Shown: positions 8,279-56,828, counted from the stretch's first letter. The stretch: 64,000 bases of DNA from an uncultured Actinomycetes bacterium (GCA_963803325.1 CAWDLU010000002.1:154982-218981); one strand, 5' to 3'. Program-made: numbers and translations. Notes: a model not told the origin generated them from the letters alone.

Positions 8279-8293
8279 CGGGAGAATAGGCGG

Positions 8294-31978: not shown

Positions 31979-32001
31979 CCGGGCTACACTACGCAGCCCG
32001 C

Positions 32002-32074
32002 GGGCCGTTAGCTCAGTTGGTAGAGCAGGGGACTCTTAATCCCAAGGTCGAAGGTTCGAATCCTTCACGGCCCA
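32002..32074 (+). tRNA. tRNA-Lys (anticodon CUU)
   Basis: 73-nt cloverleaf folded by hand. Acceptor GGGCCGT/ACGGCCC plus discriminator A, D-arm GCTC/GAGC, anticodon loop CTCTTAA (CTT at positions 34-36), T-arm GAAGG TTCGAAT CCTTC. CCA is not encoded. Confidence 0.9.
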
Positions 32075-32107
32075 ACGCTCGCCGCGACAAGGCCGCGGGC
32101 TCGCTCG

Positions 32108-32136
32108 CACGGGGGGAACGGCCGGTTCCCCCCGTG
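32108..32136 (+). terminator. GC-rich hairpin downstream of tRNA-Lys
   Basis: 11-bp perfect stem CACGGGGGGAA / TTCCCCCCGTG with a 7-nt loop. There is no U-tract, so the terminator function is inferred. Confidence 0.4.
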
Positions 32137-32374
32137 GACCCCCCCTCCCTAACCTCCTTCGCCCCCCAGGGGCGTTCGTGTGCCGCGCCCGCCAGGGTCG
32201 GTCGCGGCGGAGGAAAGGTGTGCCAAACGCGAATGGGTGGTCCAGGACTGCACTTCGCTCGGCGAGAGGCCGAGCCCGGTCAGGTAGCTGACTGCTGCGG
32301 CCGATCTGGAGTCAGAATGCGACCGGCCGCTTACAGGCCACTGACAGCCGGCAGACACGGCTTGGAGGCAGAGG

Positions 32375-32690
32375 ATGGAGTTCCGGATTCTTGGGCCGCT
32401 CGAGGTGCTCGATGGAGATTGCTACCGGTGCCTTCGGCAGTATGGCCGGCCGCGCGATGATCGGCCAAACAATGATCAACGTCCGGGTCAGCGGCGCTTG
32501 CACCCGTCTCTCGACCTTCGCCGCCGGCGTCTTCCTGCTCGTCCTCGTCGCGGTCTTCGGTGGCCAGGTTGCCCAGATACCGATGTCCGCACTGGTCGCG
32601 GTCATGATCATCGTCGCGGTTTCGACGTTTACAGCGTCGCTATCCACCAGCGCCTTACCGGCCAGCTTCGTCGGGCCGGCCGAGGACTGA
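32375..32690 (+). pseudogene. Chimeric gene remnants: SARP-type regulator N-terminus (about 15 codons) joined to a SulP-family permease internal fragment
   Basis: '[15 protein letters not shown]' is the stereotyped start of SARP/AfsR-type regulators. The overlapping frame gives '[68 protein letters not shown]', which matches the distal TM region of SulP sulfate permeases. Neither is full length. Confidence 0.55.
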
Positions 32691-32722
32691 GAGCGCTACG
32701 GCCGAAACAGAATCCGTGAGAT

Positions 32723-33355
32723 GTGTGCGGATTTTCCGGCTACGATGCGGCGCATCCTTCGGCCACTCCGCATCCGTTGACGGCCGCCGGCGGTTCCTCG
32801 ACGAGGCTCGCACAGGAGCTCGGCAGCCTGGTTGACGAGCTGGGCCTCGACGAGCGCCAGAAGCACTTCATGCGCGCGCGGTGGCTCGACCAGGTCCTGT
32901 GGCTCGAGCGGAAGGCAACGCAGGCCCAGCAGCGCTACTACGTGCTCCGGCTGGTCGGCATCGTCGGCGGGCTCGTGGTGCCCGCGCTCGTCAGCCTCAA
33001 CCTTCGCCGCGCCGACGTCGCATCGACGATCGCGTGGACGACCTTCTCGGTCAGCCTGGTCGTGGCGATCGCGATCGCGGTCGAAGGGTTCTTCAACTAC
33101 GGCGGCCGCTGGCGTCGCTTCCGGCGCACGGCCGAGCAGCTGAAGGGCGAGGGCTGGCAGTTCTCCGGGCTCGCCGGTGCATACGCGGCCTACCGCACGC
33201 ACGGCGCTGCGTTCCGGCCGTTCGCCGCCGCGGTCGAGTCGCTGATCGCCCAGGACGTCGAGAGCTACCTGACCAGGGTCGCGCGCGAGCAGCATCGTGC
33301 CGTCGAACCCAAAGGGCAGGAGCAACCCGGCGGCGACGCCGAGCCGACGCCCTAG
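32723..33355 (+). CDS. DUF4231/SLATT-like two-TM protein
   Basis: 210 aa. N-terminal helix 'KATQAQQRYYVLRL', two hydrophobic helices ('VGIVGGLVVPALVSL', 'TTFSVSLVVAIAIAVEGFF'), then 'GGRWRRFRRTAEQLKGEGWQF...AY', the W..[YF]R...E.L..E pattern I associate with DUF4231/SLATT. Stop is 20 nt before the TIR gene. Confidence 0.7.
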   Translation: MCGFSGYDAAHPSATPHPLTAAGGSSTRLAQELGSLVDELGLDERQKHFMRARWLDQVLWLERKATQAQQRYYVLRLVGIVGGLVVPALVSLNLRRADVASTIAWTTFSVSLVVAIAIAVEGFFNYGGRWRRFRRTAEQLKGEGWQFSGLAGAYAAYRTHGAAFRPFAAAVESLIAQDVESYLTRVAREQHRAVEPKGQEQPGGDAEPTP

Positions 33356-33375
33356 CCTCGAGCTCGCGGCGCGCC

Positions 33376-36357
33376 GTGGCTGACGTCTTCATCTCGTATT
33401 CGCGTCAGGACGGTGAGTTCGTCCGCGGGTTGCACGAGTTCCTGCAGGGGGCGGGCCGCGATGTGTGGGTCGATTGGGAGGACATTCCGGCGGCGTCGGC
33501 GTGGGCGCAGGACATCGACGACAGCATCGACGCGGCAGAGAGCGTCGTCTTCGTCGTCTCGACGCACTCGCTCGCCTCCGAGTACTGCACGGCCGAGTTT
33601 CGCCATGCTCAGGAGCGGGGCAAGCGGATCGTGCCGATCGCCTGTGACGCTGCCGATCCGGAGGCTGCCCAGCCCGGTCTGCGTCAGCTGAACTGGATCT
33701 GGTGCCGGGTAGGCGACGATCGGGACGCCGCCTTTGCGAAGCTGGCGGGCGCGCTCGACACCGATCTGGAGTGGGCGCGGACGCACACCCGGCTGCTCGT
33801 GCGGGCGGTCGACTGGGAGGCTCGCGGCGACAGCAGCCTGCTTCTGCGCGGGCGGGATCTGAAGCAGGCGGAGGAGGTGCTGGCGGCGAACGCGGCCAAG
33901 GAGCCGAAGCCGACCGAGCTTCAACAGCGCTACGTGCACGCGAGCAGGAGTGGCGCGTCGAGGCGCCAGCGGATCCTGCTCGGCGGCGTGCTGCTCGCCC
34001 TGGCCGTCTCGATCGGTCTCGGTGTGGCGGCGCTGCTTCAGCGGAACACGGCGAATCAGCGGGCGCGGATCGCGCGCTCGCAGGCGCTTGCCGCCCAGGC
34101 TGTGGGGGCGCTCTCGTCCGCGCCCGCGGCGGCACTTGCAGACGCGGTCAAGGCGGTCGAGACGAGCCGGACCGACGAGGCGGAGGTTGCGCTCCGCCGC
34201 GCGATCCTGGCGAACCCGGTCGAGTACGTGATCCCGGCCGGACCTGACGACCGGCGGCAGGTCGCATCGGCCGGCGCGCGCGTCGACACGAGAGCGACAC
34301 TCGCCTTCAGCGCAGACGGACAGCTGCTGGTCGGACTGACGCCGGCGGGCTCGCTTCAGGTCTGGCGCGGCGCGGACGGACGGCCCGCCGGGCAGGCGAT
34401 CTCGGCAACGACGGCGGTGGCGCTCGCGCCCGGCAAGCTGCTCTCCGCGGACGGCCGCTCGATGCGGCTCGCCCGGCCGGATGGAGCCGTGGTGCGCACT
34501 CGGGCGGTCCCTGCCGGACAGCGGGTGGTCGGGGTCGGGTTCGTGGGTCGCTCTCCGAGCGCGGTCCTGGCAGGCCGGGGAGCGGTCGCGATCGTCGACG
34601 TCGTCAGCGGCCGCGAGGTGAGGCTGCACGGGCGAGCCGTTTACGCCGGGCAGGCCGTGTTCAGCGCCGGCGGCAAACGGGTGGTGACCGTTGCCGGCGG
34701 CGAGCAGGGCACCGTGCGGGTGTGGGAGACCCACACGGGGCGTCAGCTCGCGGCGCTGCGCGCGTCCTTCCCCGAGTCGGCCGCGATCAGCCCCGACGGC
34801 CGGTTCTTCGCGGCGGTCGCACCGGACGGGGCTGAGCTCTGGTCGGTCGACCGCGGCGTCCGCCTCGCGAGGCTCGGCCCCGCTGCCCGCGTCATCTTCA
34901 GCCCCGACGGCCGCCTCGTGGTTGCGGTCGGCGAGAACGGCGGCGCCGGCGTCTGGCGATCGAACGGCGGTCGTCTCGTCGCCGCTCTGCCCGGTTTCGG
35001 CAGCCTCCATGCCGGCGCCCTCGGCAGCTTCCGCACGCCCTTCGCTCCCGGTGCCGCGTTCAGTCCGGACGGGCGGCTGCTCGCGCTCGCCGCGTCGGAC
35101 GCGATCGTGCGGGTCTGGGAGCTCGCGACGCGCAAGCAGGTCGGGGCGGTGGCGATGGGCTGGGCGAACACACTGGCGTTTGGGCCGAACGGTGGCCGGC
35201 TTGCCGCGATGACCTGGGACGGTCACGTCGTCGTTGCGCGCGCACCCGCGAGCCTCGCGCTCAGAACGGCGTTCCACCCGAGCAGCTGCGTCGCGCAGTT
35301 CGACCCCGTCCTCAGCCCGGACGGCAGACGCGTTCTCGCGCCTGTCGCCGGGGGCGCCGGCGTCTGGGATGTCGACGGCAAGCGCCTCCAGCTCCTGCCG
35401 ACGCCGGCCCGCCCAGCCGGTCCCGCCGACGCAGCCGCAGTGAGCGCGGCCGCCTTCAGCGGCGACGGAACGACGGCGGTGGTCAGCGCCAACTCCGGCG
35501 GCTGCCACCAGTCGCAGGATCAGCGGTTCTGGACCGCGGTCTGGCGTGTCGGCGGCCACTCCCAGCTTCGCCGGTTTCCGCAGGCGCTCGACATCGCTCT
35601 CGATCCGCACGGTTCGCTCATCGCCGCCGGCGGGAAGGCTTGGCGGACGGCGACCGGCGCGCCGGTGCGCTCGCTCGACGGAATCGTCGGCCTGAGTCCG
35701 GACGGGCGCCTCGCCCTGGTGCGCCGAAACTGGATTGCCACGATCGTGCAGGTCGGCTCGGGAGCGGCTGTAGCGAAGCTTCGCGGGTTCGGAGGCTTCA
35801 CGCTCTCCGACGTGTCGGCGACCTTCAGCCCGGACGGTCGCCGCCTGGTCACGTTGCGGGGAGGGGACGTGCTGCGTCTCTGGGACGCTGCGAGCGGTGA
35901 GCCGCTCGGACGCCTCGGTCGGGCCGGCGAGATCGCCGACGGCTACTCGTTCAGCAAGGACGGCCGACTCGTGCGAGTGATCTTCGAGGACGAACGAGCG
36001 GCGACGTTCAGCGCCGCGGACGGCTCGCCCGTCTCGTCGCTGGCCGGGAGGTTCGCCGCGATCTCGCCCGACGGTACCCTCGCGACGGCCGCGCGAGACG
36101 ACGGCAGCGTCGTGGTCGCCGACCTGGCGACGGAGCTGAGCGTCGCCGTCCAGACCGACACCGCCGAATCGCTCGTCAGCGCCTCGTTCGGACCGACGCC
36201 CGGGCTGCTCGTCGCCGCCGACGCGACCGGCGACGTCCACTTGCTGCGGTGCGCGATCTGCGGGTCGGAAGCCGAGCTGCTGACGCGCGCCCGGGAGCAA
36301 CTCGCACTGGTGTCGCGTTTCCATCCGCGGCGGCCGCCGGCGAGCGGCGTTGCCTGA
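33376..36357 (+). CDS. TIR domain - hydrophobic helix - WD40 repeat protein (993 aa)
   Basis: GTG 33376: 'VADVFISYSRQDGEF...SEYCTAEFRHA' (TIR_2-like, Glu retained). Linker 'LEWARTHTRLLVRAVDWEARGDSSLLLRGRDLKQAEEVL'. Hydrophobic helix 'ILLGGVLLALAVSIGLGVAALL' at about 33973-34038. Then divergent WD40-like blades ('VRVWETHTGRQL', 'IVRVWELATRKQ' and others). C-terminal 'HLLRCAICGSEAELL'. Confidence 0.85.
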   Translation: MADVFISYSRQDGEFVRGLHEFLQGAGRDVWVDWEDIPAASAWAQDIDDSIDAAESVVFVVSTHSLASEYCTAEFRHAQERGKRIVPIACDAADPEAAQPGLRQLNWIWCRVGDDRDAAFAKLAGALDTDLEWARTHTRLLVRAVDWEARGDSSLLLRGRDLKQAEEVLAANAAKEPKPTELQQRYVHASRSGASRRQRILLGGVLLALAVSIGLGVAALLQRNTANQRARIARSQALAAQAVGALSSAPAAALADAVKAVETSRTDEAEVALRRAILANPVEYVIPAGPDDRRQVASAGARVDTRATLAFSADGQLLVGLTPAGSLQVWRGADGRPAGQAISATTAVALAPGKLLSADGRSMRLARPDGAVVRTRAVPAGQRVVGVGFVGRSPSAVLAGRGAVAIVDVVSGREVRLHGRAVYAGQAVFSAGGKRVVTVAGGEQGTVRVWETHTGRQLAALRASFPESAAISPDGRFFAAVAPDGAELWSVDRGVRLARLGPAARVIFSPDGRLVVAVGENGGAGVWRSNGGRLVAALPGFGSLHAGALGSFRTPFAPGAAFSPDGRLLALAASDAIVRVWELATRKQVGAVAMGWANTLAFGPNGGRLAAMTWDGHVVVARAPASLALRTAFHPSSCVAQFDPVLSPDGRRVLAPVAGGAGVWDVDGKRLQLLPTPARPAGPADAAAVSAAAFSGDGTTAVVSANSGGCHQSQDQRFWTAVWRVGGHSQLRRFPQALDIALDPHGSLIAAGGKAWRTATGAPVRSLDGIVGLSPDGRLALVRRNWIATIVQVGSGAAVAKLRGFGGFTLSDVSATFSPDGRRLVTLRGGDVLRLWDAASGEPLGRLGRAGEIADGYSFSKDGRLVRVIFEDERAATFSAADGSPVSSLAGRFAAISPDGTLATAARDDGSVVVADLATELSVAVQTDTAESLVSASFGPTPGLLVAADATGDVHLLRCAICGSEAELLTRAREQLALVSRFHPRRPPASGVA

Positions 36358-36378
36358 GCGCGCGGGGCTCAGAATCGC

Positions 36379-37122
36379 TCAAGAACGTTTGAACACGCGA
36401 GCGAGCCGTTGCAGCATCGAGTCGGCAGGGATCAAGAGGCCGCGGCCGGCCATGCCCGTCATCCGGTCGAGCGTGGCCAGAAACTCCGCGGCAAGCTTCG
36501 GCTCGTCGCGCAGCGCCCAGAGCGCATGCGCGTTCGTCCATGCAGCATCACGGGCTCGTTCGACGTTCCACATCGCGGCGATGTCGTCGATCCGGTGAAA
36601 GCGGTGTACGGCTCGATCGAGTAATCCCAGCCAACCGGTGAGGTACAGCCGCTTGATCCTCGGCTCGACGTCCGCCAGCAGGGCATTCACCTGCTTGAAG
36701 TCGGCTTGTGCGGGTGAGCCCTCGCGCAGGTCGAGCCCGAGCTCATGGCAGGTCTTCACCAGCGCCACCGGTAGGTCGCGGTTGATGTGTGCGTTCATCC
36801 CGGCCAGGGCGAACTGGAGCGGCGTCAGCCCCCGCCCCGACCGCTGCGCGAACAGCGGCACCCACGCGGACGGCGCGCTCGCCGGATCGCGCTCGTACGC
36901 GTCGAGCGCCGAGAAGAACAGGCCGGCGAAGCAGACATCGAGCCGCTCCAGAAACCGCGGGTCGGCGAAGCCCGCCTGTGCGAGGGTGGCGTTGACGCCC
37001 TCGGTCACCTCCCGGTACAGATGCGCGAAGCAGGCGACGCCGTCCGAGCGAGGCGCCGCGGCCTCGATCCCGCGCAGCCGCTCGATCACCGCCGGGACGG
37101 TCGCTGGATTGGCCACGCTCAC
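36379..37122 (-). CDS. Hypothetical protein, DUF5995-like
   Basis: 247 aa, all-helical. 'CFAHLYREVTEGV', 'FLERLDVCFAGLFFSA' and 'LAGMNAHINRDLPVAL' match my recollection of DUF5995; not verified. Last gene of the minus-strand string. Confidence 0.5.
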   Translation of the reverse strand: MSVANPATVPAVIERLRGIEAAAPRSDGVACFAHLYREVTEGVNATLAQAGFADPRFLERLDVCFAGLFFSALDAYERDPASAPSAWVPLFAQRSGRGLTPLQFALAGMNAHINRDLPVALVKTCHELGLDLREGSPAQADFKQVNALLADVEPRIKRLYLTGWLGLLDRAVHRFHRIDDIAAMWNVERARDAAWTNAHALWALRDEPKLAAEFLATLDRMTGMAGRGLLIPADSMLQRLARVFKRS

Positions 37123-37162
37123 GGGCCAATGACTGTAACCGGCCGAGGGCCGCGGGTCGGAC

Positions 37163-40087
37163 TCAGCGTTCGTGCAGGAACCGGAGCCGCTCGACGGCGG
37201 TGAGCCTGCGGCCGACGGAAACGTGCGCTTGGACGTCGGCGAGCAGTTGCTCCAGGTTCCCGCAGGCCTGGCAGGTGTGCAGGAGGACCGTGCCGTCGCG
37301 GCTGCCGGTGATCAGATCTCGGGGGTCGCTCCCGAACGCGACGCTCGTCACCCAGCCGTGGCGATCCTCGAACCGCGCCGTCAGGCGTCCCGTGGCCGCC
37401 TCCCACACCAGCGCGATGCCGTCGCGCCCTCCCGTCGCGATCCAGCGTCCGTCGGGGCTGAACGCAGCGACGTTCGTCTCGCCGGACTCGCCTCGGAGCT
37501 CCAGCACGGCGCGTCCGCTGGCGATCTCCCAGAGGCGCGTCGGATCTCCGCGGCTCGCCGTCAGCAGGAACCGCCCGTCGGGGCTGAAGGCGACGCTGAC
37601 GATCTCGGCGGTCAGGTCGCCCAACGTGAAGATCGGCTTCCCGGTGGCCGCGTCGCGCACAGCCGACGGGCCGGCGATCGTGGCCGGGGGGGCGGTGGTC
37701 ACGACCAGGCGCCCGTCGGGGCTGAACGCGGCGTCGGCCCGCAGGATCCCCGGCTGCCCCGGAAGGGTCGTCAGCAGCCGGCCGCTCGCGACGTTCCAGA
37801 TCTTGGTCGAGTCGAACCGGGCGACGGACGCGAGCCGGGTCCCGTCCGGGCTGAAGACCACCCGATCCACCTCCCGCCGGTGCCCGCGCAGCTCGTGCAG
37901 CAGCGTGCCGGTCGTCGCGTCCCAGATGCGCACCACGTGATCCGTTCCGCCGCCGGCCGCAAGCCGGCCGTCCGGGCTGAAGGCAACGGACAGCGCCTTG
38001 CCGCCGGTCGGGTTCCGGAGGCTGACCACCGGACCGCCGGCATCGACTGCCGAGATCATCGCGGCGACGCCCGCACGTCCGATCGCCCCGGTCAGGACGC
38101 GCCCGCCGTCCGGGCTGAGCGCGGCGTCCAGGACGGGCAGGCGCTTGGGGTCGCCGATCGTGCGGACGCGGGTTCGGGCGTTCGTGTCCCAGAGGCGTGC
38201 TGTCCAATCGGCGCCCCTGCTCAACGCGAGACGGTCGTCAGCGGCAAAGCCGACCACGCTCACCTCGCGGCCGTGGGATCCAAGCCGGGCCGGTTGCCCG
38301 CTGTCCAGGGACCAGACCCGTGCGGTGCCGTCGTCGCTCGAGGTGAGCACGAGGCGTCCGTCGGAGCTGAAGATCGGGACGCCGACGCCGTTGGTGTGTC
38401 CGCGCAGCTCGGCGAGCAGACGCCCCGTGCGCGTGTCCCACACCCGCGCGACCGGGTCCTCGCCGGTCGTGGCCACCTCGGCGCCGTCTGGGCTGAACAC
38501 CGCCCTGGTCACGGGATCCGGATGACCTCTGAGGGTGACGAGCAGACGGCCGCTCTGCGAGTCCCAGATGCGTGCGGTCCGGTCGGCCGAGGCCCCGACC
38601 ACGCGCGCACCCTCCGGGTCGAACGCCGCGTAGTTCACGCTCGCTCCGGCGCCGCGGAGCACCGCGACGCTCGCGCCGGTGACCGCCGACCAGACGCGAG
38701 CCGTGCCGTCGTCTCCGGCCGTGACCACCCGGGTGCCGTCCGGACTGAAGAGGGCGCGGTTCACCCCGCCCCGGTGGCCTCGCAGGACGTACAGCCGAGC
38801 ACCCGTACGCGCGTCCCACACGGTGGCTCCGTCGGGCCCGGCGGCGACCACGCGAGTGCCGCCGTGATCGAACGCTGCATTGAACACGGACCCGTTTCCC
38901 CGAAGCGCGGTCGCCGGCCGTCCGCCGGTGAGGTTCCAGACCCAGACCACGCCGTCGGCGCTCACGGCGAGCGCCCGGGTGCCGTCGTCGCTGAACGAGG
39001 CGCCGTAGAGCGCCGCCGTTGGGCCCTGAAGGACGGCGCGCGGGTCGCCGGTGTGGGCGTCCCAGATCCGAACGGTGCCGTCGGAGCCCGCGGTCAGCAG
39101 CCGCTCGCCCCGGCGGTCGAACTTGACCGCGTCGACCGTTCCCCGGTGCCCGCGCAGCTCGGCGACGAGCCTGCCGGTCCGCACGCTCCAGAGACGCGCG
39201 GTGCCTTCGGCCGCGGCGGTCACGGCCCGGTCGCCCTGCGGCGCCAGATCGGCGGCAAACAGAGGCGCGGGCAGTCCGTCGAAGGTAGCCCGTGAGTGGG
39301 AGCTGAGGATCGCCTGGCGCAGCGCGTCCTCGGCCTCCGCGGTCGGCTTCGTCTCCGCGGCGCGAGCCGCCAGCAGCACGCTCAGCTCGGGATCGAGCGG
39401 GAGCTGCTGGTTGGCCAGGGCGGCGATCTCACGCGAGCGGGCGGTGTGCTCGCGGTCGATCGCCTGGCTGCGCGTGACGAGCGAGTAGGCGGTGAGCGCG
39501 AGCGAGACCGCGAGCGCGAACCCGACCGCGCCGAGGACGATTTGCTGCCTGCGGCTGGCGGCCCGGCGGCTCGCCGCGACGAAGTCCCGCTGGAGATCCG
39601 TCGGCGACTCCCCGTGCGGCCCGGGGTCGTTGAGCCATCTCTCCTCGGCCTCCTTCAGCCGGCCGCCGCGCAGCAGCGTGCTCTTGTCCCTGCCGCTTGC
39701 AACCCAGTCGTGGGCCTGGATGGTCAGCTCGTTGTGCTTGTCGCGCCACCACAGATCGGCGTTGACCGCCTCGACGACCTGCTCGATGCCGAGGTCGACC
39801 GGATCGGCCTCCCCGAGCTGGATCCGCTGGATCTTCGCGAGCGCATCCGGCACCCGGTCGTCAGGCACGTCGATGCGCACGATCGGGACGAGCGGCTTGC
39901 CGAGCTCGACTGCGACGCCGAGCTCGCGCCGGCAGTACTCGGACTCGAGTGACCCCGGGCTGATCACGAAGGCGAACGCGCGCGCCGCCCGGATGCCGGT
40001 GTCGATGCGCTCTTGCCAGTCGGCGCCCGGCTCGATGTCGTCGAGGTCGAGCCAGACGTTCTTTCCCCGCGCCTCGAGTGCGGTCAC
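37163..40087 (-). CDS. TIR - hydrophobic helix - WD40 repeat protein; annotated from the first canonical start, but the TIR N-terminus continues upstream without a start codon
   Basis: 974 aa from GTG 40087. TIR remainder 'VWLDLDDIEPGADW...SEYCRRELGVA', linker 'DLWWRDKHNELTIQAHDWVASGRDKSTLLRGGRLKEAEERWL', helix 'IVLGAVGFALAVSLALTAYSLV', about 15 WD40 blades ('LRGHRGTVDAVKFDRRGERLLTAGSDGTVRIWDAHTG' and similar), and C-terminal 'LLHTCQACGNLEQLL'. The in-frame upstream sequence encodes 'ADAFISYSRRDTREFVQGQL'. Confidence 0.75.
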   Translation of the reverse strand: MTALEARGKNVWLDLDDIEPGADWQERIDTGIRAARAFAFVISPGSLESEYCRRELGVAVELGKPLVPIVRIDVPDDRVPDALAKIQRIQLGEADPVDLGIEQVVEAVNADLWWRDKHNELTIQAHDWVASGRDKSTLLRGGRLKEAEERWLNDPGPHGESPTDLQRDFVAASRRAASRRQQIVLGAVGFALAVSLALTAYSLVTRSQAIDREHTARSREIAALANQQLPLDPELSVLLAARAAETKPTAEAEDALRQAILSSHSRATFDGLPAPLFAADLAPQGDRAVTAAAEGTARLWSVRTGRLVAELRGHRGTVDAVKFDRRGERLLTAGSDGTVRIWDAHTGDPRAVLQGPTAALYGASFSDDGTRALAVSADGVVWVWNLTGGRPATALRGNGSVFNAAFDHGGTRVVAAGPDGATVWDARTGARLYVLRGHRGGVNRALFSPDGTRVVTAGDDGTARVWSAVTGASVAVLRGAGASVNYAAFDPEGARVVGASADRTARIWDSQSGRLLVTLRGHPDPVTRAVFSPDGAEVATTGEDPVARVWDTRTGRLLAELRGHTNGVGVPIFSSDGRLVLTSSDDGTARVWSLDSGQPARLGSHGREVSVVGFAADDRLALSRGADWTARLWDTNARTRVRTIGDPKRLPVLDAALSPDGGRVLTGAIGRAGVAAMISAVDAGGPVVSLRNPTGGKALSVAFSPDGRLAAGGGTDHVVRIWDATTGTLLHELRGHRREVDRVVFSPDGTRLASVARFDSTKIWNVASGRLLTTLPGQPGILRADAAFSPDGRLVVTTAPPATIAGPSAVRDAATGKPIFTLGDLTAEIVSVAFSPDGRFLLTASRGDPTRLWEIASGRAVLELRGESGETNVAAFSPDGRWIATGGRDGIALVWEAATGRLTARFEDRHGWVTSVAFGSDPRDLITGSRDGTVLLHTCQACGNLEQLLADVQAHVSVGRRLTAVERLRFLHER

Positions 40088-40205
40088 CAGTTGCCCCTGG
40101 ACGAACTCTCTGGTGTCGCGGCGCGAGTACGAGATGAACGCGTCGGCCCGAGCGGCGCCGGCTTCGGCCCCCGCTGTGGGGAGACCGGCACTCGGGGCGG
40201 CGTGG

Positions 40206-41924
40206 CTACCAGTTCGGGACGAGGTTCTGTCCCCGGCTGTTGGTCAATCGTCTCTGGCCGCTTCCGTCGCGGTTCACGACCGAGATCTCGGTGTCTTTGG
40301 CCTGCCCCTCGGCGAACGCGATCCTGGTTCCGTCGGGTGACCACGTGGGGTGGAACTCGTACTCGTCGACGCTCGTCAGCCGCTGCTGGTTTCCGCCGTC
40401 CGCGTCCATCACGTAGATGCGCTGCTTGCCGTCGCGGTCGCTCTCGAAGGCGATCTCCGCCCCGTCGGGCGACCAGGCGGGATTGACGTCCGACGCGGGG
40501 TTCGAAGTCAGCCTCTTCTGGCCGCTCCCGTTCGCGTTCATCACGTAGATCTGGGGCTTTCCGTTCCGGCTGCTGTCAAAGGCGATCTTCGTTCCGTCGG
40601 GCGACCAGACGGGGTCAGCGTTCTTGCCGGCTCCCGCGGTCAGCTTCGTGCGCCCGGTCCCGTCTGCATCGATCACGTAGATCTCGGTGTCCCCGGCCAG
40701 GTTCCCCTCGAAGGCGATCTTCGCCCCGTCCGGCGACCATTTCGGGAACCGGTCGCCCGCGGGGCTCGTGGTCAGCCTGGTCTGGTCGCTTCCGTCGGCG
40801 TCCATCACGTAGAGCTGTGAGCGGCCGTAGGTCGCCCGGTTGCTCTCGAAGACGAGCTTCCCGCCGTCGGGCGACCAGGCGGGGTCGAAGCTCTGATGGG
40901 GCGGCGAGGTCAGTGGTCTCTGGCCGCTTCCGTCGGGGTTCATCGTGAAGACCTGGAAGTCGCCGCTGCGATCGCTCTCGAAGGCGATCTTCGCCGATGC
41001 GCTCCTCTCGATCGTCCACGAGTAGGAGACCGCCGGGCCGGTGTTGCCCGCTTGATCGGTCGCCCGCACCGAGAACGTGTGGCGACCGGGTGGGAGCGTG
41101 TACGGCTGGGGCGACGTGCAGGCGAACACCATCCCCCCGTCGATCGCACAGCCGTACACGGTCCCACCGGAGAACGTGAACGACGCGTCTCTGCGCGGTG
41201 TCGGGTCGCCGGGGCGGCCGCCGAGCGTCGTCGTCGGAGGTGTGAGGTCGGTGACCGGCGGCAGCGCGCTCGCCAGTTGGGCAAACGTCGTTTGCTCGAC
41301 CCGGGTCAGCTTGACCTTCTGCGGGGGTCGCGGGTTCTTTCCGAGCGGCACGACCACCTGACGGGCATAACGCTTGTCCTTCAGGTTCAGCGCCACGACG
41401 ACGCCTTTGCCCTTGCGCCCGCTCACGACGGCGACTCCGCGCCGCAGCCTGACGATTCCGCTGCGCTTGCCGACGGCGACCTCGAAGACGGGATCGGTCG
41501 TCGTCACCGTCACGTCCCGACCGAGCAGGAACTTCTTCTTCTGGCCTTTGGGCGAGGTCGAGCAGGTGGCGCCGCCGTCGAGGAAATGGATCAGCCTGGC
41601 TGCGTCCGGTACCACCTCGAGCCGGACACGCACATTCGTCTGGCAGGCCGTGCCCTTCTTCTTGACCTTGAGGCTGAAGCTGAGGAAGGTCTTTCCCCCG
41701 CCGCCGGCGCTGATCAGGTCGCCGGAGTGCAGGGGGTCTCCGGTGTGGATGCCGTGGCGGTTGATCGTCACCCCTCCGCCGGTGACTCTCTTCACCTTGC
41801 CGACGACGGCACGACCCGCTGCGCCGCCCGCCGCATCGGCCGGCACGAGCACGATCGCGCAGAGCAGCAGCGCGAGAGCTGCCCGCGGTAGGCGAGGGTG
41901 CCGGCGGACGTCGGCGAATCGCAT
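40206..41924 (-). CDS. Secreted TolB-like beta-propeller (PD40 repeats) protein with FecR-like and Ig-like N-terminal regions
   Basis: ATG 41924 with signal 'MRFADVRRHPRLPRAALALLLCAIVLVPADA'. C-terminal repeats 'FESDRSGDFQVFTMNPDGSGQRPLT', 'WSPDGGKLVFESNR...LYVMDADGSDQTRLT' and similar, six or more in all, are the PD40/TolB pattern. The tracked ORF starts at TTG 41948. Confidence 0.75.
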   Translation of the reverse strand: MRFADVRRHPRLPRAALALLLCAIVLVPADAAGGAAGRAVVGKVKRVTGGGVTINRHGIHTGDPLHSGDLISAGGGGKTFLSFSLKVKKKGTACQTNVRVRLEVVPDAARLIHFLDGGATCSTSPKGQKKKFLLGRDVTVTTTDPVFEVAVGKRSGIVRLRRGVAVVSGRKGKGVVVALNLKDKRYARQVVVPLGKNPRPPQKVKLTRVEQTTFAQLASALPPVTDLTPPTTTLGGRPGDPTPRRDASFTFSGGTVYGCAIDGGMVFACTSPQPYTLPPGRHTFSVRATDQAGNTGPAVSYSWTIERSASAKIAFESDRSGDFQVFTMNPDGSGQRPLTSPPHQSFDPAWSPDGGKLVFESNRATYGRSQLYVMDADGSDQTRLTTSPAGDRFPKWSPDGAKIAFEGNLAGDTEIYVIDADGTGRTKLTAGAGKNADPVWSPDGTKIAFDSSRNGKPQIYVMNANGSGQKRLTSNPASDVNPAWSPDGAEIAFESDRDGKQRIYVMDADGGNQQRLTSVDEYEFHPTWSPDGTRIAFAEGQAKDTEISVVNRDGSGQRRLTNSRGQNLVPNW

Positions 41925-42014
41925 CGAACAGGTGGCGGAGATGGGCAACGAACGCCCCCAGGTGAGCTGACAGCAACAACGACGCTCTCACGCCGCGTGG
42001 GGGGTGTCAAGCCC

Positions 42015-42055: not shown

Positions 42056-45004
42056 CTACTCCGCGGCGAGGCGCTCGCGCGCGAGCGCGCGCAGCGGGCC
42101 GATCGGCACGCAGAGGTCGCAGGCCCAGAGCCGTGCCGTTCCGTCGTCTCCGACAGTGAGGACGAGCTTGCCGTCGGGGCTGAAGACCGCGCTTTCGACC
42201 GGGCGGCGGTGACCTCTGAGGGTGTCGACTCGGTGGCCGCTGGCGGTGTCCCAGAGCCGCGCCGTCCCGTCGTCGCCGGCGGTGAGGACGAGCTTGCCGT
42301 CGGGGCTGAAGACGGCGCCGTAGACGGGGCCGCTGTGGCCGCTGAGCGTGCGGACGGGATCGCCGCCGGCCGTCTTCCAGAGCCGGGCGGTCCCGTCGTC
42401 GCCGGCGGTGAGGACGAGCTTGCCGTCGGGGCTGAAGACGGCGCCGTAGACGGGGCCGCTGTGGCCGCTGAGCGTGTGGACAGGGTTGCCGGTGGCGGTA
42501 ATCCAGAGCCGCGCGGTCCCGTTGGACCCGTCGCTGCCGGCAGTGAGGACGAGCTTGCCGTCGGGGCTGAAGACGGCGCTCGTGACGGGACCCTTGTGGG
42601 TGAAGGTGTGGTCGGGGGCGATGGGGTGGCCGGGGCTGCCGCCGGCGGTTCTCCAGAGCCGTGCCGTCCCGTCATCGCTGGCGATGAGGACGAGCATGCC
42701 GTCGGCACTGAAAAGCGCACTGGAGACGGTGCCGTCGTAGCCCTTCAGGATGGGTCCCGGGAGGCCGTCGGCAGTGTCCCACAGCTGCGCCTTTCGACCG
42801 ACGGTGAGGACGAGCTTGCCGTCGGGGCTGAAGACGGCTGTGGAGGCGGTCCCGCCGTGGCCGAGAGTGTGGACGGGGTCGTCGCTTGCAGCGTCCCAGA
42901 GCCGCGCGGTCCCGTCGTCGCCGGCGGCGAGGACGAGCGTGCCGTCGCGGCTGAAAACGGCACTGGTGACGGCGACGCGCTGGCCGATGAGGGTGTGGCC
43001 CGCTTCGCCGCCGGGCGTCTTCCAGAGACGCGCCTTCCGACCGGCGGTGAGGACGAGCGTACCGTCGGGGCTGAAGACGGCGCTGTGGACGGGGTCCTTG
43101 GAGCCGCCGAGGATGATCGGGCGGTCGCCGCCGACGTCCCAGAGCCGCGCAGTCGTGTCGTCGCCGGCGGTGAGGACGAGCTTGCCGTCGGGGCTGAAGA
43201 CGGCGCTGTGGATCGGGTCCTTGTCTGCGCTGAGCGTGTCGATGGGGTCGCCGGTGGCCGTATCCCAGAGCCTCGCCGCCCCGTCGGCGCCGGCGGTGAG
43301 GACGTGCGCGCCGTCCGGGCTGAAGACGGCGCCGGCCACGAGCTTGCCGTGGTGACCGTTGAGAGTGTGGACGAGGTGGCCGCTCGCGGTCCTCCAGAGT
43401 CGCGCAGTTCCGTCGTCGCCGGCGGTGAGGACGAGCTTGCCCCGGGGGCTGAAGACGGCGCTGGAGACGCGGCCGCGGTGGCCGTGGAGGGTGCGGATGG
43501 GCTCGCCGCTGGCCGTCTGCCAGAGCTGCGCCGTTCCGTCGTCGTCGGCGGTGAGGACGAGCGTGCCGTCGGGACTGAGGACCGCGCTGTGAACCGGGCC
43601 GTGGTGGCCGCTGAGGGTGTGGACGAGGCGGCCGGTCGCAGTCCTCCAGAGCCGCGCCGTCCCGTCGGTGCCTGCGGTCAGGACGAGCTTGCCGTCGCGG
43701 CTGAAGACGGCGCTGGAGACAAGGCCGTGGTGGCCCTTGAGGGTGTGGACGAGGTGGCCGCTCGCAGTCGTCCAGAGCCTCGCGGTTCCGCCGGCGCCTG
43801 CGGTGAGGACGAGCTTGCCGTCGCGGCTGAAGACGGCGCTGGAGACAAGGCCGTGGTGGCCGCTGAGGGTGTGGACGAGGTGGCCACCGGCGGTCTTCCA
43901 GAGCCTCGCCGTTCCGTCGGCGCCGGCGGTGAGGACGAGCTTGCCCCGGGGGCTGAAGACGGCGGTGGAGACGGGCTTGCCATGGTGGCCCTTGAGGATG
44001 GGGCCGGGCTCACCGCCGACCGTGTCCCAGAGCCGTGCGGTCCCGTCCTCGCCCGCGGTGAGGACGAGCTTGCCGTCGGGGCTGAAGACTGCGCTCGAGA
44101 CGGCAAGCCTGTTACCCCGGAGCGTCCTGCGGAGCAGGTCCGCGGCGAGCGCCACCCGCAGCGCGCCTTCCGCCTCGCGTGTCGGCGACGTCTCCGCCGC
44201 TCTCCCTGCCAGTGCGAGCGCCGCCGAAGGATCCGCGTCGACAGCTGCAACCGACTGCCCCGCCAGTGCCCGCGACTCTCCGATGAGAGCCTGGTCGCGG
44301 GCCCGCACTGTAAGCACGGCGAGGGTCGCTGCACCGATCGCCAGTGCTGCGAGCAGCGCCCCGGCTGACCAGGCGAGGCGCAAAATGCGCCTGTGCTGGG
44401 TGATGTCCTCGCCGAGCAGCGTGTCCTTGTCGCGGCCGTGGATCGGCGCAGCGATGTCGGCGATCGCGTTGCGGAAGTCGGGCTGGCGGAGCGACACGTC
44501 CGATTCGGCGCGCGCGAAGCGGAGGTCGATCCAGAAGGGCTCGGAGGCGAACGCGTGCTCGAGCGCGCGTGGCAGCGCGGTCGTCCGCTGCCAGTCGAGA
44601 TCGCCGGTGTGTTCGTCCCAGGCGATCTCACCGTCGGTCAGCGCGATCAGAAAGGTGTCGATCGACTTGTGCTCGCGCCAGTAGCCGATCTCCTTGCCGA
44701 CCCACTCCGACTCGGCCGCGTCCGGTGAAGCCAGCAGGACGAAGAACCGCGACCCGGCCAGCGCGCGTTCGATCCCCGACCAGAGCGCAGGCGTCGCCGA
44801 CAGGCTCGTCTGGTCGCGGAATACGCGCAGCGCGTTCAGCCGGTACCACGGCTTCGCAAATCGGCGTAGCCCGCGCTGAAGCGACGGCGCGAGCCTTCCG
44901 TCGGCCGCGTGGCTGTAGGAGATGAACGCGTCGTACCCGGCCGCACCGTCCGGCGAGCGTGCCCGCCGCCGGCGGAGCGAGTACCTACGGGCCGGGCGGC
45001 TCAT
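42056..45004 (-). CDS. TIR - hydrophobic helix - WD40 repeat protein (982 aa) with highly homogenised blades
   Basis: 'YDAFISYSHAADGRL...SEWVGKEIGYW' (TIR). Helix 'LAWSAGALLAALAIGAATLAVLTV'. About 16 blades of consensus 'TLxGHxGxVxSAVFSPDGKLVLTAGDDGTARLWxTAxGxxVx', several identical at the DNA level. C-terminal 'RLWACDLCVPIGPLRALA'. Confidence 0.85.
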   Translation of the reverse strand: MSRPARRYSLRRRRARSPDGAAGYDAFISYSHAADGRLAPSLQRGLRRFAKPWYRLNALRVFRDQTSLSATPALWSGIERALAGSRFFVLLASPDAAESEWVGKEIGYWREHKSIDTFLIALTDGEIAWDEHTGDLDWQRTTALPRALEHAFASEPFWIDLRFARAESDVSLRQPDFRNAIADIAAPIHGRDKDTLLGEDITQHRRILRLAWSAGALLAALAIGAATLAVLTVRARDQALIGESRALAGQSVAAVDADPSAALALAGRAAETSPTREAEGALRVALAADLLRRTLRGNRLAVSSAVFSPDGKLVLTAGEDGTARLWDTVGGEPGPILKGHHGKPVSTAVFSPRGKLVLTAGADGTARLWKTAGGHLVHTLSGHHGLVSSAVFSRDGKLVLTAGAGGTARLWTTASGHLVHTLKGHHGLVSSAVFSRDGKLVLTAGTDGTARLWRTATGRLVHTLSGHHGPVHSAVLSPDGTLVLTADDDGTAQLWQTASGEPIRTLHGHRGRVSSAVFSPRGKLVLTAGDDGTARLWRTASGHLVHTLNGHHGKLVAGAVFSPDGAHVLTAGADGAARLWDTATGDPIDTLSADKDPIHSAVFSPDGKLVLTAGDDTTARLWDVGGDRPIILGGSKDPVHSAVFSPDGTLVLTAGRKARLWKTPGGEAGHTLIGQRVAVTSAVFSRDGTLVLAAGDDGTARLWDAASDDPVHTLGHGGTASTAVFSPDGKLVLTVGRKAQLWDTADGLPGPILKGYDGTVSSALFSADGMLVLIASDDGTARLWRTAGGSPGHPIAPDHTFTHKGPVTSAVFSPDGKLVLTAGSDGSNGTARLWITATGNPVHTLSGHSGPVYGAVFSPDGKLVLTAGDDGTARLWKTAGGDPVRTLSGHSGPVYGAVFSPDGKLVLTAGDDGTARLWDTASGHRVDTLRGHRRPVESAVFSPDGKLVLTVGDDGTARLWACDLCVPIGPLRALARERLAAE

Positions 45005-45016: not shown

Positions 45017-46135
45017 CTAGGCGGGGAAGCCGGCGAAGTGCTCGCGTTTCACCTTCGAGGCGACCGCGCGGCCGACCTGCTGGAGCTCGGCCACGTGCTC
45101 GATCGAGTCGAGCCGCTGCACCTCGGCCGGGTTGATGTCGGGCACACCGAGGAGCGTCAGGCCTTCCTTCGACAGCTCGCCGTTGTAGCGGGCGTAGGTG
45201 AAGAGCTTCGGCTCGACGGGCCCTCGCACAGTGGCGAGGTCGCCGACCTCGCGGTCGAGCGGGTCGCCTGCGAGGCAGCGGCCGAAGACCCGGCAGAGCA
45301 GGTCCTGCTCGTTCAGCGCGGCGCCCATCAGGGCGGCGGGGATCGAGCCGGCGTTGTAGAGCAGGTTCATCTCGTCCGGCCGGAGGTTCACGTTCGCGCG
45401 CGGGTTCGTTCCCGTGCCGATCGAGACCAGCAGCATCTGCTCCTCGCCCGTCGCCCAGCCGAGGCCGTACGGCTCCACCGTCGCCATCAGGAAGAGCTGG
45501 AACGCCGGGTTATTGTACATCGTCACGCCGCCGTCGACGAAGACGAACGACTGCCCGCCGCCGATGTCGATCACCTCCGGCGGGAAAAAGGTGGGCGCCG
45601 CCGTGCTCGCGCGCACGAGCTGCCAGAGCGGGAGGTCGAGATTCCGGAACGGGCGGTCGGGCAGGTTGTACCGCGCCGCCGGGTTGTTCGAGAGCGGCCA
45701 GGGCGAGTCGGTCGTCGCGTTGCGCACGACGACCAGCAGCAGCGTTCTGAGCCGGTCGCTGCCGAGTGTCGTGTCCTCGCCGAGCTCTTTCCGCAGACGC
45801 CTGGCGAGGTGGTCGTCCTCGTACTTGTAACGGAAGCGCGCCAGCACCCTTGCCTTGTCGAACATGTCGGTGGCGTTCTCGACGTAGAAGTCGCGGATCC
45901 GCTCGGCGGACATCCCGACAGAGAGGCAGGTCGCGATCACCGCGCCGGTGCTCGTGCCGGCGATGTAGTCGAAGTAGTCGGCGAGGACGAACTCCCTGCC
46001 GCCGCCGCAGTCTTCGCGCAGAAGCCGCTCGATCTCGGCCAGCACCTCGATCGTGATCAGCCCGCGGATGCCGCCGCCGTCGAGTGCAAGCAGCTTGCGC
46101 GGGCCGGCCTTCGCGAGCTTGTCGGCCACCGTCAT
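45017..46135 (-). CDS. Patatin-like phospholipase
   Basis: From ATG 46135: oxyanion 'LALDGGGIRGL', nucleophile elbow 'IAGTSTGA' (GxSxG), and the catalytic Asp context 'FVDGGVTMYNNP'. Stop lies 12 nt before the TIR-WD40 start. Confidence 0.85.
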   Translation of the reverse strand: MTVADKLAKAGPRKLLALDGGGIRGLITIEVLAEIERLLREDCGGGREFVLADYFDYIAGTSTGAVIATCLSVGMSAERIRDFYVENATDMFDKARVLARFRYKYEDDHLARRLRKELGEDTTLGSDRLRTLLLVVVRNATTDSPWPLSNNPAARYNLPDRPFRNLDLPLWQLVRASTAAPTFFPPEVIDIGGGQSFVFVDGGVTMYNNPAFQLFLMATVEPYGLGWATGEEQMLLVSIGTGTNPRANVNLRPDEMNLLYNAGSIPAALMGAALNEQDLLCRVFGRCLAGDPLDREVGDLATVRGPVEPKLFTYARYNGELSKEGLTLLGVPDINPAEVQRLDSIEHVAELQQVGRAVASKVKREHFAGFPA

Positions 46136-48168: not shown

Positions 48169-48266
48169 CCGCTCGTCCTGTGAGCTCACAGGCGGCCGCC
48201 TCTGGCAGTCATCGCAATCGAGAGCGTACGCTCCCCGCTGTGGACGCGAGCGGAAGGTGATCACGC

Positions 48267-55322: not shown

Positions 55323-55393
55323 CCGCGAACGCTGTCGGCGAGGCGCCTGCGGCGCAGGCATTTGACTGGGAAATCAACGGTAGGCTTTCCCCA

Positions 55394-55630: not shown

Positions 55631-55641
55631 TCCCGATCGGG

Positions 55642-55977: not shown

Positions 55978-55991
55978 GCGATCATTTCGAA

Positions 55992-56706: not shown

Positions 56707-56828
56707 GCGCGCCGCGCGAGGCGTAAAAGAAGAGCAGGCCATGGACCCTACGGTCGACGCCTGCTCGCCTCATTCTGCCTATCGGCCGCCGTCCGGTCAA
56801 TCGTTACCGGTCATTCCTTACACGTCGG

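Follow-up and report, generated by a model that had tools for sequence, protein, structure and literature searches.

Introduction

Type VII Thoeris, a phage defence system, is formed by a ThsB TIR protein and a ThsH SLATT effector and operates via canonical cADPR; the SLATT effector responds directly to the cADPR made by the TIR protein (Yirmiya et al., bioRxiv 2025, 10.64898/2025.12.03.692087). TIR-STAND/WD40 'apoptotic' conflict proteins have been described in multicellular bacteria (Kaur, Burroughs, Iyer, Aravind 2020/2021; PMC7159879, PMC8195603), and SLATT proteins have been predicted to be pore-forming effectors that answer a nucleotide or ADPr signal (PMC7159879; PMC9503650). TIR-to-effector signalling of the Thoeris kind is now known to be widespread; the TIR proteins characterised as signal generators belong to ThsB and are small and cytosolic, and the recognition of their trigger is poorly understood. 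Nucleotide-sensor/pore systems of the SLOG(LSDAT)-SLATT type were reportedly predicted by Burroughs, Zhang, Schaffer, Iyer and Aravind in NAR in 2015. In eukaryotic TRPM2, an ADPR-gated channel carries a SLOG-like domain at its N-terminus, and this N-terminal region binds ADPR according to published cryo-EM work.

A stretch of 64,000 nt from an uncultured Actinomycetes bacterium (hereafter, the window) was evaluated by computational analysis throughout. A SLATT/DUF4231 gene, the product of which has two transmembrane (TM) helices, is followed in this stretch by a gene encoding a TIR-linker-TM-WD40 protein. The locus represents a known type of bacterial immune signalling system in a trimmed form.

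Comparison with described systems

As in type VII Thoeris, TIR and two-helix SLATT genes were placed in one operon, here on the same strand with a gap of 20 nt, and an NAD derivative made by the TIR domain would act on a membrane effector. Type VII Thoeris works without a sensor protein of its own, as would the SLOG-less window pair. The sequence-only reading of this DNA had regarded the two genes as a sensor-effector pair, and TIR plus SLATT was later validated by experiment as a defence configuration, type VII Thoeris (10.64898/2025.12.03.692087). The differences lie in the TIR protein and in the gene content. ThsB is a short stand-alone TIR protein, whereas the window protein, of 993 aa, also contains a TM helix and WD40 propellers. 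No similarity of the window TIR domain to the validated ThsB domains could be detected: three type VII ThsB TIR domains gave no match at E <= 1 when compared with the window ORFs by BLASTP. Moreover, the ancestral form of the window system has a third gene, which encodes an LSDAT SLOG protein.

In the subfamily to which the SLATT protein belongs, LSDAT_prok is the usual neighbour (57 of 69 upstream genes), and a nucleotide-generating enzyme is associated with the SLATT protein, namely the product of the TIR_2 gene 20 nt downstream. Both features are shared with the SLOG(LSDAT)-SLATT systems, but the defining SLOG partner is missing from the window. With the TIR-STAND/WD40 proteins, the TIR-WD40 protein shares an N-terminal TIR effector/signalling domain, C-terminal WD40 sensor repeats, an actinobacterial and cyanobacterial distribution and the presence of several paralogues per island; however, it has no NTPase switch between the TIR domain and the repeats, it contains a conserved TM helix, and its gene is tightly coupled to SLATT. 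Type II Thoeris (TIR with a Macro-domain 2TM effector) also combines a TIR signal with a two-helix membrane effector, although its TIR architecture is different. A type II identity was rejected because the window effector is a SLATT-family protein without a Macro match (DUF4231 and SLATT_3 only in Pfam). A CBASS or Pycsar system with a SLATT-type effector was also rejected, since no CD-NTase or cyclase gene was present in the operon; the SLATT and TIR genes had no PADLOC CBASS or Pycsar match.

The SLATT gene

The ORF at 32723-33355 (+ strand, 210 aa) matched Pfam DUF4231 (PF14015; E 5.6e-29, 101 bits, cut-off 24.7), Pfam SLATT_3 (E 2.6e-8) and NCBIfam SLATT_1 (NF033634; 97.1 bits against a cut-off of 41). 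The SLATT homologues (n = 300) are mostly 185-195 aa long, and homology of the gene to its 90%-identical relative, L081, begins at about 32735. Hence, the ORF that had been reported earlier is present, but its start codon is probably TTG 32777 and not GTG 32723, which would give a gene at 32777-33355 (+) and a product of 192 aa.

Two adjacent TM helices with positively charged flanks were located by hydropathy at residues 54-77 and 81-108 (TM1, 32936-33007; TM2, 33017-33100; both +), and the conserved post-TM motif GGRWRRFRRTAEQLKGEGWQF (33101-33163, +) directly follows TM2, which confirmed what had been seen in the sequence before. The AlphaFold2 model was confident and all-helical (pLDDT 89.6). 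The protein fits the superfamily layout, a TM helix pair with flanking cytoplasmic helices, and it retains 23 of the 23 residues that are invariant in the family. A PADLOC v2 search with the SLATT protein returned no match, and no solved structural relative of the protein was found.

The TIR-TM-WD40 gene

SLATT ends with a stop codon at 33353-33355, and the TIR gene begins with GTG at 33376, as read from the sequence; therefore, the intergenic gap (33356-33375, +) is exactly the 20 nt given by the sequence-only reading. The same strand and the 20-nt gap imply an operon arrangement for the two genes, and the operon neighbours of SLATT are the TIR gene and gene fragments only. The TIR gene (33376-36357, +) encodes 993 aa. 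The TIR_2 profile was matched at residues 4-123 (E 4.2e-26, 92.3 bits against a cut-off of 28; 33385-33744, +), and WD40, PD40 and beta-propeller models were also matched. The family assignments suggested earlier for both proteins were thus significant, and the TIR domain does carry its own large WD40 module and is not a minimal ThsB.

The TIR domain is followed by a conserved helical linker (33745-33966, +), a TM helix predicted by hydropathy (33967-34044, +) and a divergent WD40/beta-propeller region (about 34180 to 36250, +) with a C-terminal CxxC motif at its end. The closest solved relatives of the TIR domain were PdTIR 3h16, AbTIR 7uwg/8g83 and Cat1. Glu74 (codon 33595-33597, +), the Glu of 'SEYCTAEF', was aligned with the Glu in the 'WTNYEL' segment of AbTIR, which we take to be the catalytic residue, and it was invariant across seven relatives (alignment A5).

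The helix at residues 198-223, between the TIR-linker and WD40 regions, is the single strongly hydrophobic helix of the protein and was kept in 8 SLATT-linked orthologues and in 75 of 78 metagenomic relatives. With this conserved TM helix, the TIR-WD40 protein resembles a membrane receptor, and the charge bias of the helix suggests that the WD40 region lies outside the cell. PknD is a receptor Ser/Thr kinase with a kinase-TM-extracellular beta-propeller organization. PknD and the TIR-CHASE2 protein of locus L052 share the topology of the window protein, in which one TM helix links a cytoplasmic enzymatic domain to a propeller or sensor at the C-terminus. The window protein differs from PknD in that its output domain is TIR and not a kinase, and in that its WD40 region is predicted to be extracytoplasmic from hydropathy and charge bias only.

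The conserved three-gene operon

The conserved unit is an LSDAT-type SLOG gene, followed by SLATT and then by TIR-TM-WD40. SLATT was next to TIR-WD40 in 15 of the 91 loci bearing this DUF4231 subfamily, in at least six independent lineages, which belong to the actinobacteria and the cyanobacteria, so that the proposed co-occurrence of the two genes was found elsewhere. In all other lineages with SLATT before TIR-WD40, LSDAT SLOG was upstream of or fused to SLATT. SLOG overlaps SLATT and TIR-WD40 follows after 8 nt in L082-L087 and in L088/L089, whereas the gap before TIR-WD40 is 90 nt in L090, where SLOG also overlaps SLATT. The order SLOG, SLATT, TIR-WD40 was seen in L001, and cyanobacterial SLOG-SLATT fusions precede TIR-TM-WD40 in L032, L037 and L042. 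A 995-aa orthologue in L082 shares 53% identity with the TIR-WD40 protein of the window along the full length of the latter. The sensor-effector pair claimed by the sequence-only reading is therefore recurrent as a SLATT/TIR-WD40 pairing, but the complete unit has a third gene, SLOG, which is deleted here. That reading had missed the three-gene unit, the SLOG deletion, the TM helix and the mostly solo occurrence of TIR-TM-WD40. The convergent DUF5995 gene (36379-37122, - strand; Pfam DUF5995, E 4.4e-65) is context only and not a conserved partner: it is found in L081, yet not beside the orthologous operons of L082-L090.

Chance adjacency of unrelated SLATT and TIR-WD40 genes is highly improbable. 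Each gene family is also found without the other, but their order and short gaps (mostly 8 nt; 20-90 nt in three lineages) recur in at least six lineages of two phyla, and the SLATT subfamily is linked to other TIR architectures too. The SLOG-less partners in the same DUF4231 subfamily are TIR-pYEATS in L010, a protein with three TIR domains plus CHASE2 in L052, and a TPR-S protein plus TIR-TPR in L006.

The SLOG profile matched TRPM2 N-terminal regions (E 1e-16), and by this analogy SLOG is likely an ADPR sensor. The cyanobacterial SLOG-2TM fusions parallel the fusion of a SLOG-like domain to a pore in TRPM channels, although SLATT is a 2TM protein and not a six-TM channel.

Loss of SLOG and selection on the remaining genes

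The tRNA-Lys(CTT) gene at 32002-32074 (+; ARAGORN; Rfam tRNA, 73.9 bits) is the left border of a variable island and a hot spot for integration. According to the ORF listing and the profile search, the slot of the absent SLOG gene is occupied by a junk spacer (32075-32734), within which a SARP-like start is found at 32375 and a SulP permease fragment at 32391-32690 (Sulfate_transp profile matched at positions 286-354 only). The spacer has no relation to the DNA 5' of SLATT in L081. LSDAT SLOG gave no signal in the whole 64-kb window (best E 0.086). What is left of the deleted SLOG (LSDAT_prok) gene, a 42-nt piece of its 3' end, was identified by local alignment at 32735-32776 (+) and is now the leader of the SLATT gene. 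The relic is identical to L081 at 37 of 41 positions, and when it was aligned locally with the 3' ends of the SLOG genes in L001, L082 and L088, the alignments beat 2000 shuffles (P <= 0.001 for 3 of the 4 comparisons). L081 has the identical SLOG-less junction, and its tRNA-Lys is separated from SLATT by an insert of about 9 kb, in which two repeats of the 3' end of the tRNA occur along with a PIN gene and an integrase fragment. The SLOG gene was deleted at the tRNA-Lys integration hot spot, both here and in this 90%-identical relative. Since SLOG is gone and a relic of about 42 nt is left, the window copy is a truncated derivative and not a complete sensor-effector pair. With SLOG, the presumed ligand sensor was lost, and the original operon promoter was probably lost too; no promoter-like site was found 5' of SLATT in a scan that is weak for high-GC actinobacteria.

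The remaining genes, SLATT and TIR-TM-WD40, are intact and under purifying selection with an omega of about 0.2, and both proteins are full length relative to their orthologues. In the comparison with L081, omega was 0.18 for SLATT (P(neutral) 1.6e-7); for codons 1-385 of TIR-WD40, it was 0.22 (P 1e-12). By segment, omega was 0.12 in the TIR domain, 0.09 in the linker together with the TM helix and 0.73 in the first WD40 segment. The WD40 sensor is fast-evolving, and the value of 0.73 covers its first segment.

These results bear on whether the pair is a decayed remnant, in which SLATT would be an orphan that cannot be triggered after SLOG loss, and TIR-TM-WD40 would by itself be both the sensor and an effector that depletes NAD+, as is presumed for its many solo relatives. 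No SLATT gene was present 5' of TIR-TM-WD40 in 61 of 70 relatives, including the closest ones (66-77% identity); the TIR protein is therefore not generally SLATT-dependent and evidently can work alone. This finding favours the decayed remnant, as does the lack of SLOG in the window when all other TIR-WD40-linked lineages have it. Decay or rearrangement is also seen elsewhere in the island, where the second TIR-WD40 gene has no canonical start codon 5' of its TIR domain and gene fragments occupy 32375-32690. However, SLATT keeps all of its family-invariant residues, and purifying selection has acted on it since the window and L081, which share the SLOG-less junction, diverged. Furthermore, SLOG-less SLATT-TIR pairs are known in the same subfamily and in validated type VII Thoeris. 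A decayed remnant is thus considered rather unlikely.

The island

Profile searches of the window identified at least four island proteins with a TIR_2 domain, and a fifth candidate, p708, had only a weak TIR-like PADLOC match. One window paralogue is TIR-nSTAND1-TM-WD40. Besides a TIR-nSTAND1 protein, the island contains a CapV-like patatin and a type I restriction-modification methylase, a PD40 propeller gene with a signal peptide and further candidate signal-responsive effectors. With several TIR_2 proteins and other effectors in the island, cross-talk with the SLATT/TIR-WD40 pair is possible, which weakens the independence of the pair that the sequence-only reading had proposed.

The same biochemistry could also serve a non-antiviral role in a multicellular actinobacterium: the membrane-anchored TIR-WD40 protein would respond to a cue from the envelope or from outside the cell (damage to the cell wall, kin or non-kin contact, or a developmental signal), and SLATT would bring about dormancy or programmed cell death. 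In L052, the equivalent genomic slot is taken by the TIR-CHASE2 protein, and CHASE2 domains are extracytoplasmic sensors. This role is further consistent with the conserved TM helix and its charge bias, with the PD40 propeller gene of the island and with the concentration of these architectures in actinobacteria and filamentous cyanobacteria, which have been discussed as carrying apoptosis-like conflict systems (PMC7159879, PMC8195603). However, a variable tRNA island with a CapV-like patatin, TIR-nSTAND1 and a type I methylase is a typical defence island, and all experimentally tested TIR-SLATT systems are antiphage. The non-antiviral role is accordingly judged quite improbable.

Proposed mechanism

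It is on balance probable that the window pair, the distal two thirds of a three-gene signalling operon, still acts as a TIR-to-SLATT two-component module. In the proposed mechanism, TIR-TM-WD40 would be both the sensor and the signal generator, its beta-propellers detecting the trigger and gathering the TIR domains. The gathered TIR domains would use Glu74 to cleave NAD+, and the product would be of the ADP-ribose type (ADPR or cADPR). In complete operons, the SLOG protein, as a homologue of the TRPM2 N-terminal region, would capture this product and open or oligomerise the SLATT two-helix protein, so that the membrane may be permeabilised and the cell arrested or killed. In the SLOG-less copy, SLATT and TIR-TM-WD40 would most likely remain two-component, like type VII Thoeris. 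The presence of SLOG in the other lineages and the many TIR-TM-WD40 relatives without SLATT count against the two-component module, as do the unlikeness of the TIR domain to the validated type VII ThsB domains, the lack of a PADLOC match or solved structural relative for SLATT and the lack of a promoter-like site upstream.

A further reading, which is possible but doubtful, takes TIR-TM-WD40 as a transmembrane receptor with the layout of animal Toll-like receptors, in which a single TM helix joins the cytoplasmic TIR domain to an extracytoplasmic repeat sensor (here a beta-propeller). A cue from outside or from the envelope, for instance the adsorption of a phage or damage to the wall, would then be converted into an NAD-derived messenger, which in complete operons would gate a SLOG-SLATT 'mini-TRPM2' pore; in the SLOG-less derivative of the window, SLATT would read the signal directly.

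Conclusion

The window TIR protein bears an explicit, fast-evolving WD40 sensor behind a conserved TM helix, and in its complete relatives TIR-TM-WD40 is wired to a SLOG protein resembling the TRPM2 N-terminus and to a 2TM SLATT effector. If confirmed, the system would provide a bacterial model for the activation of TIR by a repeat sensor across or at the membrane, as well as for the gating of a minimal membrane effector by an ADPR-type ligand via SLOG. The window and L081 would represent a natural deletion experiment on SLATT sensing without SLOG. If the receptor reading is true, the family would exhibit outside-in TIR immune signalling in bacteria and a prokaryotic antecedent of both the Toll-like receptor topology and the ADPR-gated TRPM channels.

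The SLATT Gene and the TIR-TM-WD40 Gene

The two genes of the pair were located on the plus strand from the open reading frame (ORF) listing and profile matches, the SLATT/DUF4231 ORF at 32723–33355 and the TIR-TM-WD40 ORF (993 aa) at 33376–36357. The sequence-only reading had assigned the first gene to DUF4231/SLATT, and the profile search bore this out: the product matched Pfam DUF4231 (E = 5.6e-29, 101 bits, cut-off 24.7), Pfam SLATT_3 and NCBIfam SLATT_1 (97 bits, cut-off 41). The two adjacent hydrophobic helices and the signature behind them, also described in that reading, were seen in the hydropathy profile as two adjacent transmembrane (TM) helices followed by a conserved GGRWRRFRRTAEQLKGEGWQF segment. 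The AlphaFold2 model, built with 45 homologues, was confident and all-helical (pLDDT 89.6). The protein had been given as 210 aa; the ORF exists, but the true start is probably TTG 32777 (192 aa), because the homologues are 185–195 aa long and homology to the close relative starts at about 32735. The protein had 300 database homologues, kept all of the family-invariant residues (23/23) and was full length relative to its orthologues. A PDB sequence search gave a chance match only (E = 0.95), Foldseek with the confident model gave a best E of 0.39 with all matches to generic helical bundles, and no PADLOC model matched the protein. Only one relative (39% identity) was found in 2.9 million viral contigs; a phage origin was rejected, the subfamily being essentially absent from such contigs.

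The 20-nt gap between the SLATT ORF and the TIR gene at GTG 33376 is as previously read off the sequence. The TIR assignment was likewise confirmed by a TIR_2 match at residues 4–123 (E = 4.2e-26), and WD40, PD40 and propeller models were also matched. The segment 'SEYCTAEF', singled out earlier, contains Glu74, which is invariant among seven relatives; its counterpart in the alignment to AbTIR (PDB 7uwg/8g83) is the Glu of 'WTNYEL', the catalytic residue. The earlier description of the protein as TIR plus WD40 held, but it had missed one strongly hydrophobic helix at residues 198–223, which follows a conserved helical linker and precedes the WD40 region. The protein is also full length relative to its orthologues.

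Synteny of the Pair

Locally built HMMs and Pfam were used to survey 91 loci with this SLATT subfamily; 80 of the loci were taken from GTDB species genomes (cyanobacteria for the most part) and the other 11 were those of close metagenomic homologues. An LSDAT_prok SLOG gene stood directly upstream, with nothing else, at 58 loci; SLOG upstream was combined with TIR-WD40 downstream at 10 loci, and a SLOG-SLATT fusion was followed by TIR-WD40 at three cyanobacterial loci. TIR-WD40 downstream without SLOG was found at one locus (L081, a relative of the window), and another TIR protein downstream without SLOG at four. Pfam characterised the partners at three of these four as TIR-pYEATS, a TPR-S protein plus TIR-TPR, and three TIR domains plus CHASE2. 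The genes were tightly packed at the 10 loci with both SLOG and TIR-WD40: in L082–L089 the start of SLATT overlaps the stop of SLOG, and 8 nt separate SLATT from the TIR gene; a 90-nt gap precedes the TIR-WD40 gene in L090. The adjacency of SLATT and TIR-WD40 was seen in two phyla and has arisen or been kept in six or more independent lineages, and chance was therefore excluded; the expectation that the two genes are syntenic elsewhere was upheld.

In the fusion loci (L032, L037 and L042, cyanobacterial MAGs, about 5200–9440), LSDAT_prok SLOG and DUF4231/SLATT are contained in one protein of 449–460 aa, and Pfam confirmed both domains within one 449-aa protein. This arrangement resembles TRPM, as a 'mini-TRPM'-like sensor-pore fusion; a 975-aa NNH2-NACHT-HEAT protein comes before it and TIR-TM-WD40 after it. 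Moreover, in a Leptolyngbya MAG (L052, 5488–10138), the DUF4231 protein has a 198-aa N-terminal extension lacking any Pfam match, and the next gene encodes a 1073-aa protein that combines three TIR_2 domains with CHASE2, which is another receptor-like TIR partner of the same SLATT subfamily.

The reverse survey took in the 70 metagenomic relatives of the TIR-linker-TM region for which sufficient DNA upstream was available. TIR-TM-WD40 proteins are mostly solo genes, with the SLOG-SLATT module as a facultative add-on, because this SLATT was upstream in only 7 of the 70 relatives (SLOG too in five of these seven). None of the closest relatives (66–77% identity) had SLATT upstream.

Loss of the SLOG Gene and Selection on the Pair

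No LSDAT SLOG signal was detected across the whole 64-kb window (best E = 0.086). A tRNA-Lys(CTT) gene at 32002–32074 was the sole Rfam match over 30–54 kb, and the 650 nt from it to the SLATT gene held gene fragments only. A SARP-type N-terminus and a SulP sulfate permease fragment, the latter only the C-terminal TM part (profile positions 286–354), abut in different frames at 32375–32690 on the plus strand; they are debris that replaced the SLOG gene. Two candidate replacements were rejected as not LSDAT-like, namely the 'GGARGAD' C-terminal domain of a 708-aa TPR-S protein in the window (hhalign probability 1%) and the 359-aa gene that precedes SLATT in L081 (0.1%).

L081 aligned with the window at ~90% identity in three stretches: an epimerase gene plus tRNA-Lys, SLATT plus TIR-WD40, and a DUF5995 gene plus a second TIR-WD40 gene. 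Between tRNA-Lys and SLATT, L081 carries ~9 kb of extra mobile DNA (665–9958, against window 32075–32734), on which lie a PIN gene, part of a phage integrase (182 aa) and two incomplete copies of the tRNA 3' end. The tRNA-Lys site is a recurrent integration hot spot because this DNA lies at the same tRNA; within the window, the tRNA-Lys 3' end is not repeated (no attR). The TIR-WD40 copy of L081 (10592–13580) is split into two called genes by five single-base insertions relative to the intact window gene, reflecting either long-read assembly errors or real pseudogenisation.

SLOG is absent from L081 too. Homology between the window and L081 extends only ~42 nt beyond the SLATT gene on its upstream side, past which the DNA is unrelated. 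These 42 nt were compared with the SLOG 3' ends of three other loci (L001, L082 and L088) and beat 2000 shuffles (P ≤ 0.001 in three of four comparisons). The simplest reading is that SLOG was deleted at the tRNA hot spot in an ancestor shared by the window and L081, which would have left a 3' stub.

Relative to L081, omega was 0.18 for SLATT (P(neutral) = 1.6e-7) and 0.22 for codons 1–385 of TIR-WD40 (P = 1e-12), and both genes have been under purifying selection since the split. The corresponding DUF5995 estimate was discarded, an indel having shifted its alignment out of frame. By segment, omega was 0.12 for the TIR, 0.09 for the linker plus TM and 0.73 for the first WD40 segment (34156–34530); the sensor surface of TIR-WD40 is evolving fast. 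A promoter and terminator scan of 32000–37300, which says little at 70% GC, found none. A still-functional two-gene TIR-to-SLATT module was somewhat favoured for the window copy. The main rival explanation, a crippled remnant with TIR-WD40 acting alone, was considered less likely.

The TIR-Rich Island

The window has a G+C content of ~70%, of actinobacterial type, and a TIR-rich island lies to the right of the pair. After the DUF5995 gene (minus strand), the second TIR-WD40 gene (TIR-TM-WD40, 37163–40243, minus strand) encodes a complete TIR domain ('AFISYSRRD' at ~40138; TIR_2 E = 6e-26). No in-frame ATG, GTG or TTG was found between its upstream stop (40243) and the TIR, and the first canonical start, GTG 40087, falls within the domain. 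Its homology to L081 stops at 40183, where the next gene abuts; a rearrangement has probably truncated it at the 5' end or made it a pseudogene. That next gene (40206–41948, minus strand) encodes a 580-aa protein that starts with a signal or TM segment and contains a Big_13-like region as well as five TolB-like PD40 repeats, a secreted beta-propeller between two TIR-TM-WD40 genes. A third TIR-TM-WD40 gene (42056–45004), a CapV-like patatin phospholipase gene (45017–46135; NCBIfam CBASS_lipase 118 bits, short of the 200-bit cut-off) and the adjoining gene of the 708-aa TPR-S protein (46138–48264; TPR-S 'sensor' repeat E = 2e-15, with a weak TIR-like N-terminal PADLOC match) follow on the minus strand. 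The last two look like further TIR-signal-responsive effectors, and the TPR-S protein may be compared with ThsI, the 'CMP hydrolase + TPR' effector of type VIII Thoeris. A TIR-nSTAND1-TM-WD40 gene follows on the plus strand (48267–52400).

All four island WD40 proteins (33376–36357, 37163–40243, 42056–45004 and 48267–52400) carry one hydrophobic helix that separates the WD40 repeats from the N-terminal module (TIR in three, TIR-nSTAND1 in one), and all end in a similar C-terminal CxxC...L..A motif. The G+C content falls to 0.655–0.68 around 55–59 kb, and a type I restriction-modification methylase gene (HsdM) lies at 59363–60841 (N6_Mtase E = 7e-67); the features at 55000–61000 are consistent with a larger defence island.

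Comparison with Known Systems and Proposed Mechanism

Operons of a TIR and a SLATT gene (type VII Thoeris) protect against phage via canonical cADPR, and exogenous cADPR is toxic to cells with this system (Yirmiya et al., December 2025; 10.64898/2025.12.03.692087). The locus would work like type VII Thoeris but differs from it in one tested feature. The TIR of the locus is not ThsB-like and is unrelated to validated ThsB TIR domains; no similarity was found between type VII ThsB TIR domains and the window TIRs, in line with the earlier view that the protein, which matches WD40/propeller models, is not a minimal ThsB. Another locus (L168, 1939–7357) encodes a 167-aa ThsB, 60% identical to the tested type VII Thoeris ThsB of Bacillus sp. 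PvP124, then a receiver/TIR-like protein and then a 1145-aa protein in which two TIR domains are combined with a TM helix and WD40 repeats; SLATT is absent from this locus. The locus descends from SLOG(LSDAT)-SLATT systems, but their defining SLOG is missing in the window. Type II Thoeris was ruled out because a Macro domain is absent, and CBASS or Pycsar because a cyclase is absent.

The single TM helix was conserved in 8/8 SLATT-linked orthologues and in 75 of 78 metagenomic relatives. Beside it, the relatives had on average 4.27 Lys plus Arg on the flank facing the TIR, against 2.96 on the flank facing the WD40 region, the net charge was +3.3 versus +1.0, and the TIR side was the more positive flank in 65 of 75 cases. 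Because of this charge bias, a topology is favoured in which the TIR would be cytoplasmic and the WD40 region extracytoplasmic. CHASE2 is an extracytoplasmic sensor, and according to Pfam a TIR-CHASE2 protein occupies the same genomic slot in L052. The profile of the SLOG proteins accompanying this SLATT matched TRPM2 channels in their N-terminal region (E = 1e-16), which is the MHR1/2 domain that binds ADP-ribose. Aravind's group predicted that SLATT is a pore-forming effector answering a nucleotide/ADPr-derivative signal (PMC7159879; PMC9503650). For the full three-gene system, the most likely order is that WD40 recognition would activate the TIR, the TIR would make an ADPR-type product, SLOG would bind that product and SLATT would permeabilise the membrane. 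Tentatively, the system may represent a bacterial TIR receptor of TLR topology feeding a SLOG/SLATT 'mini-TRPM2'.
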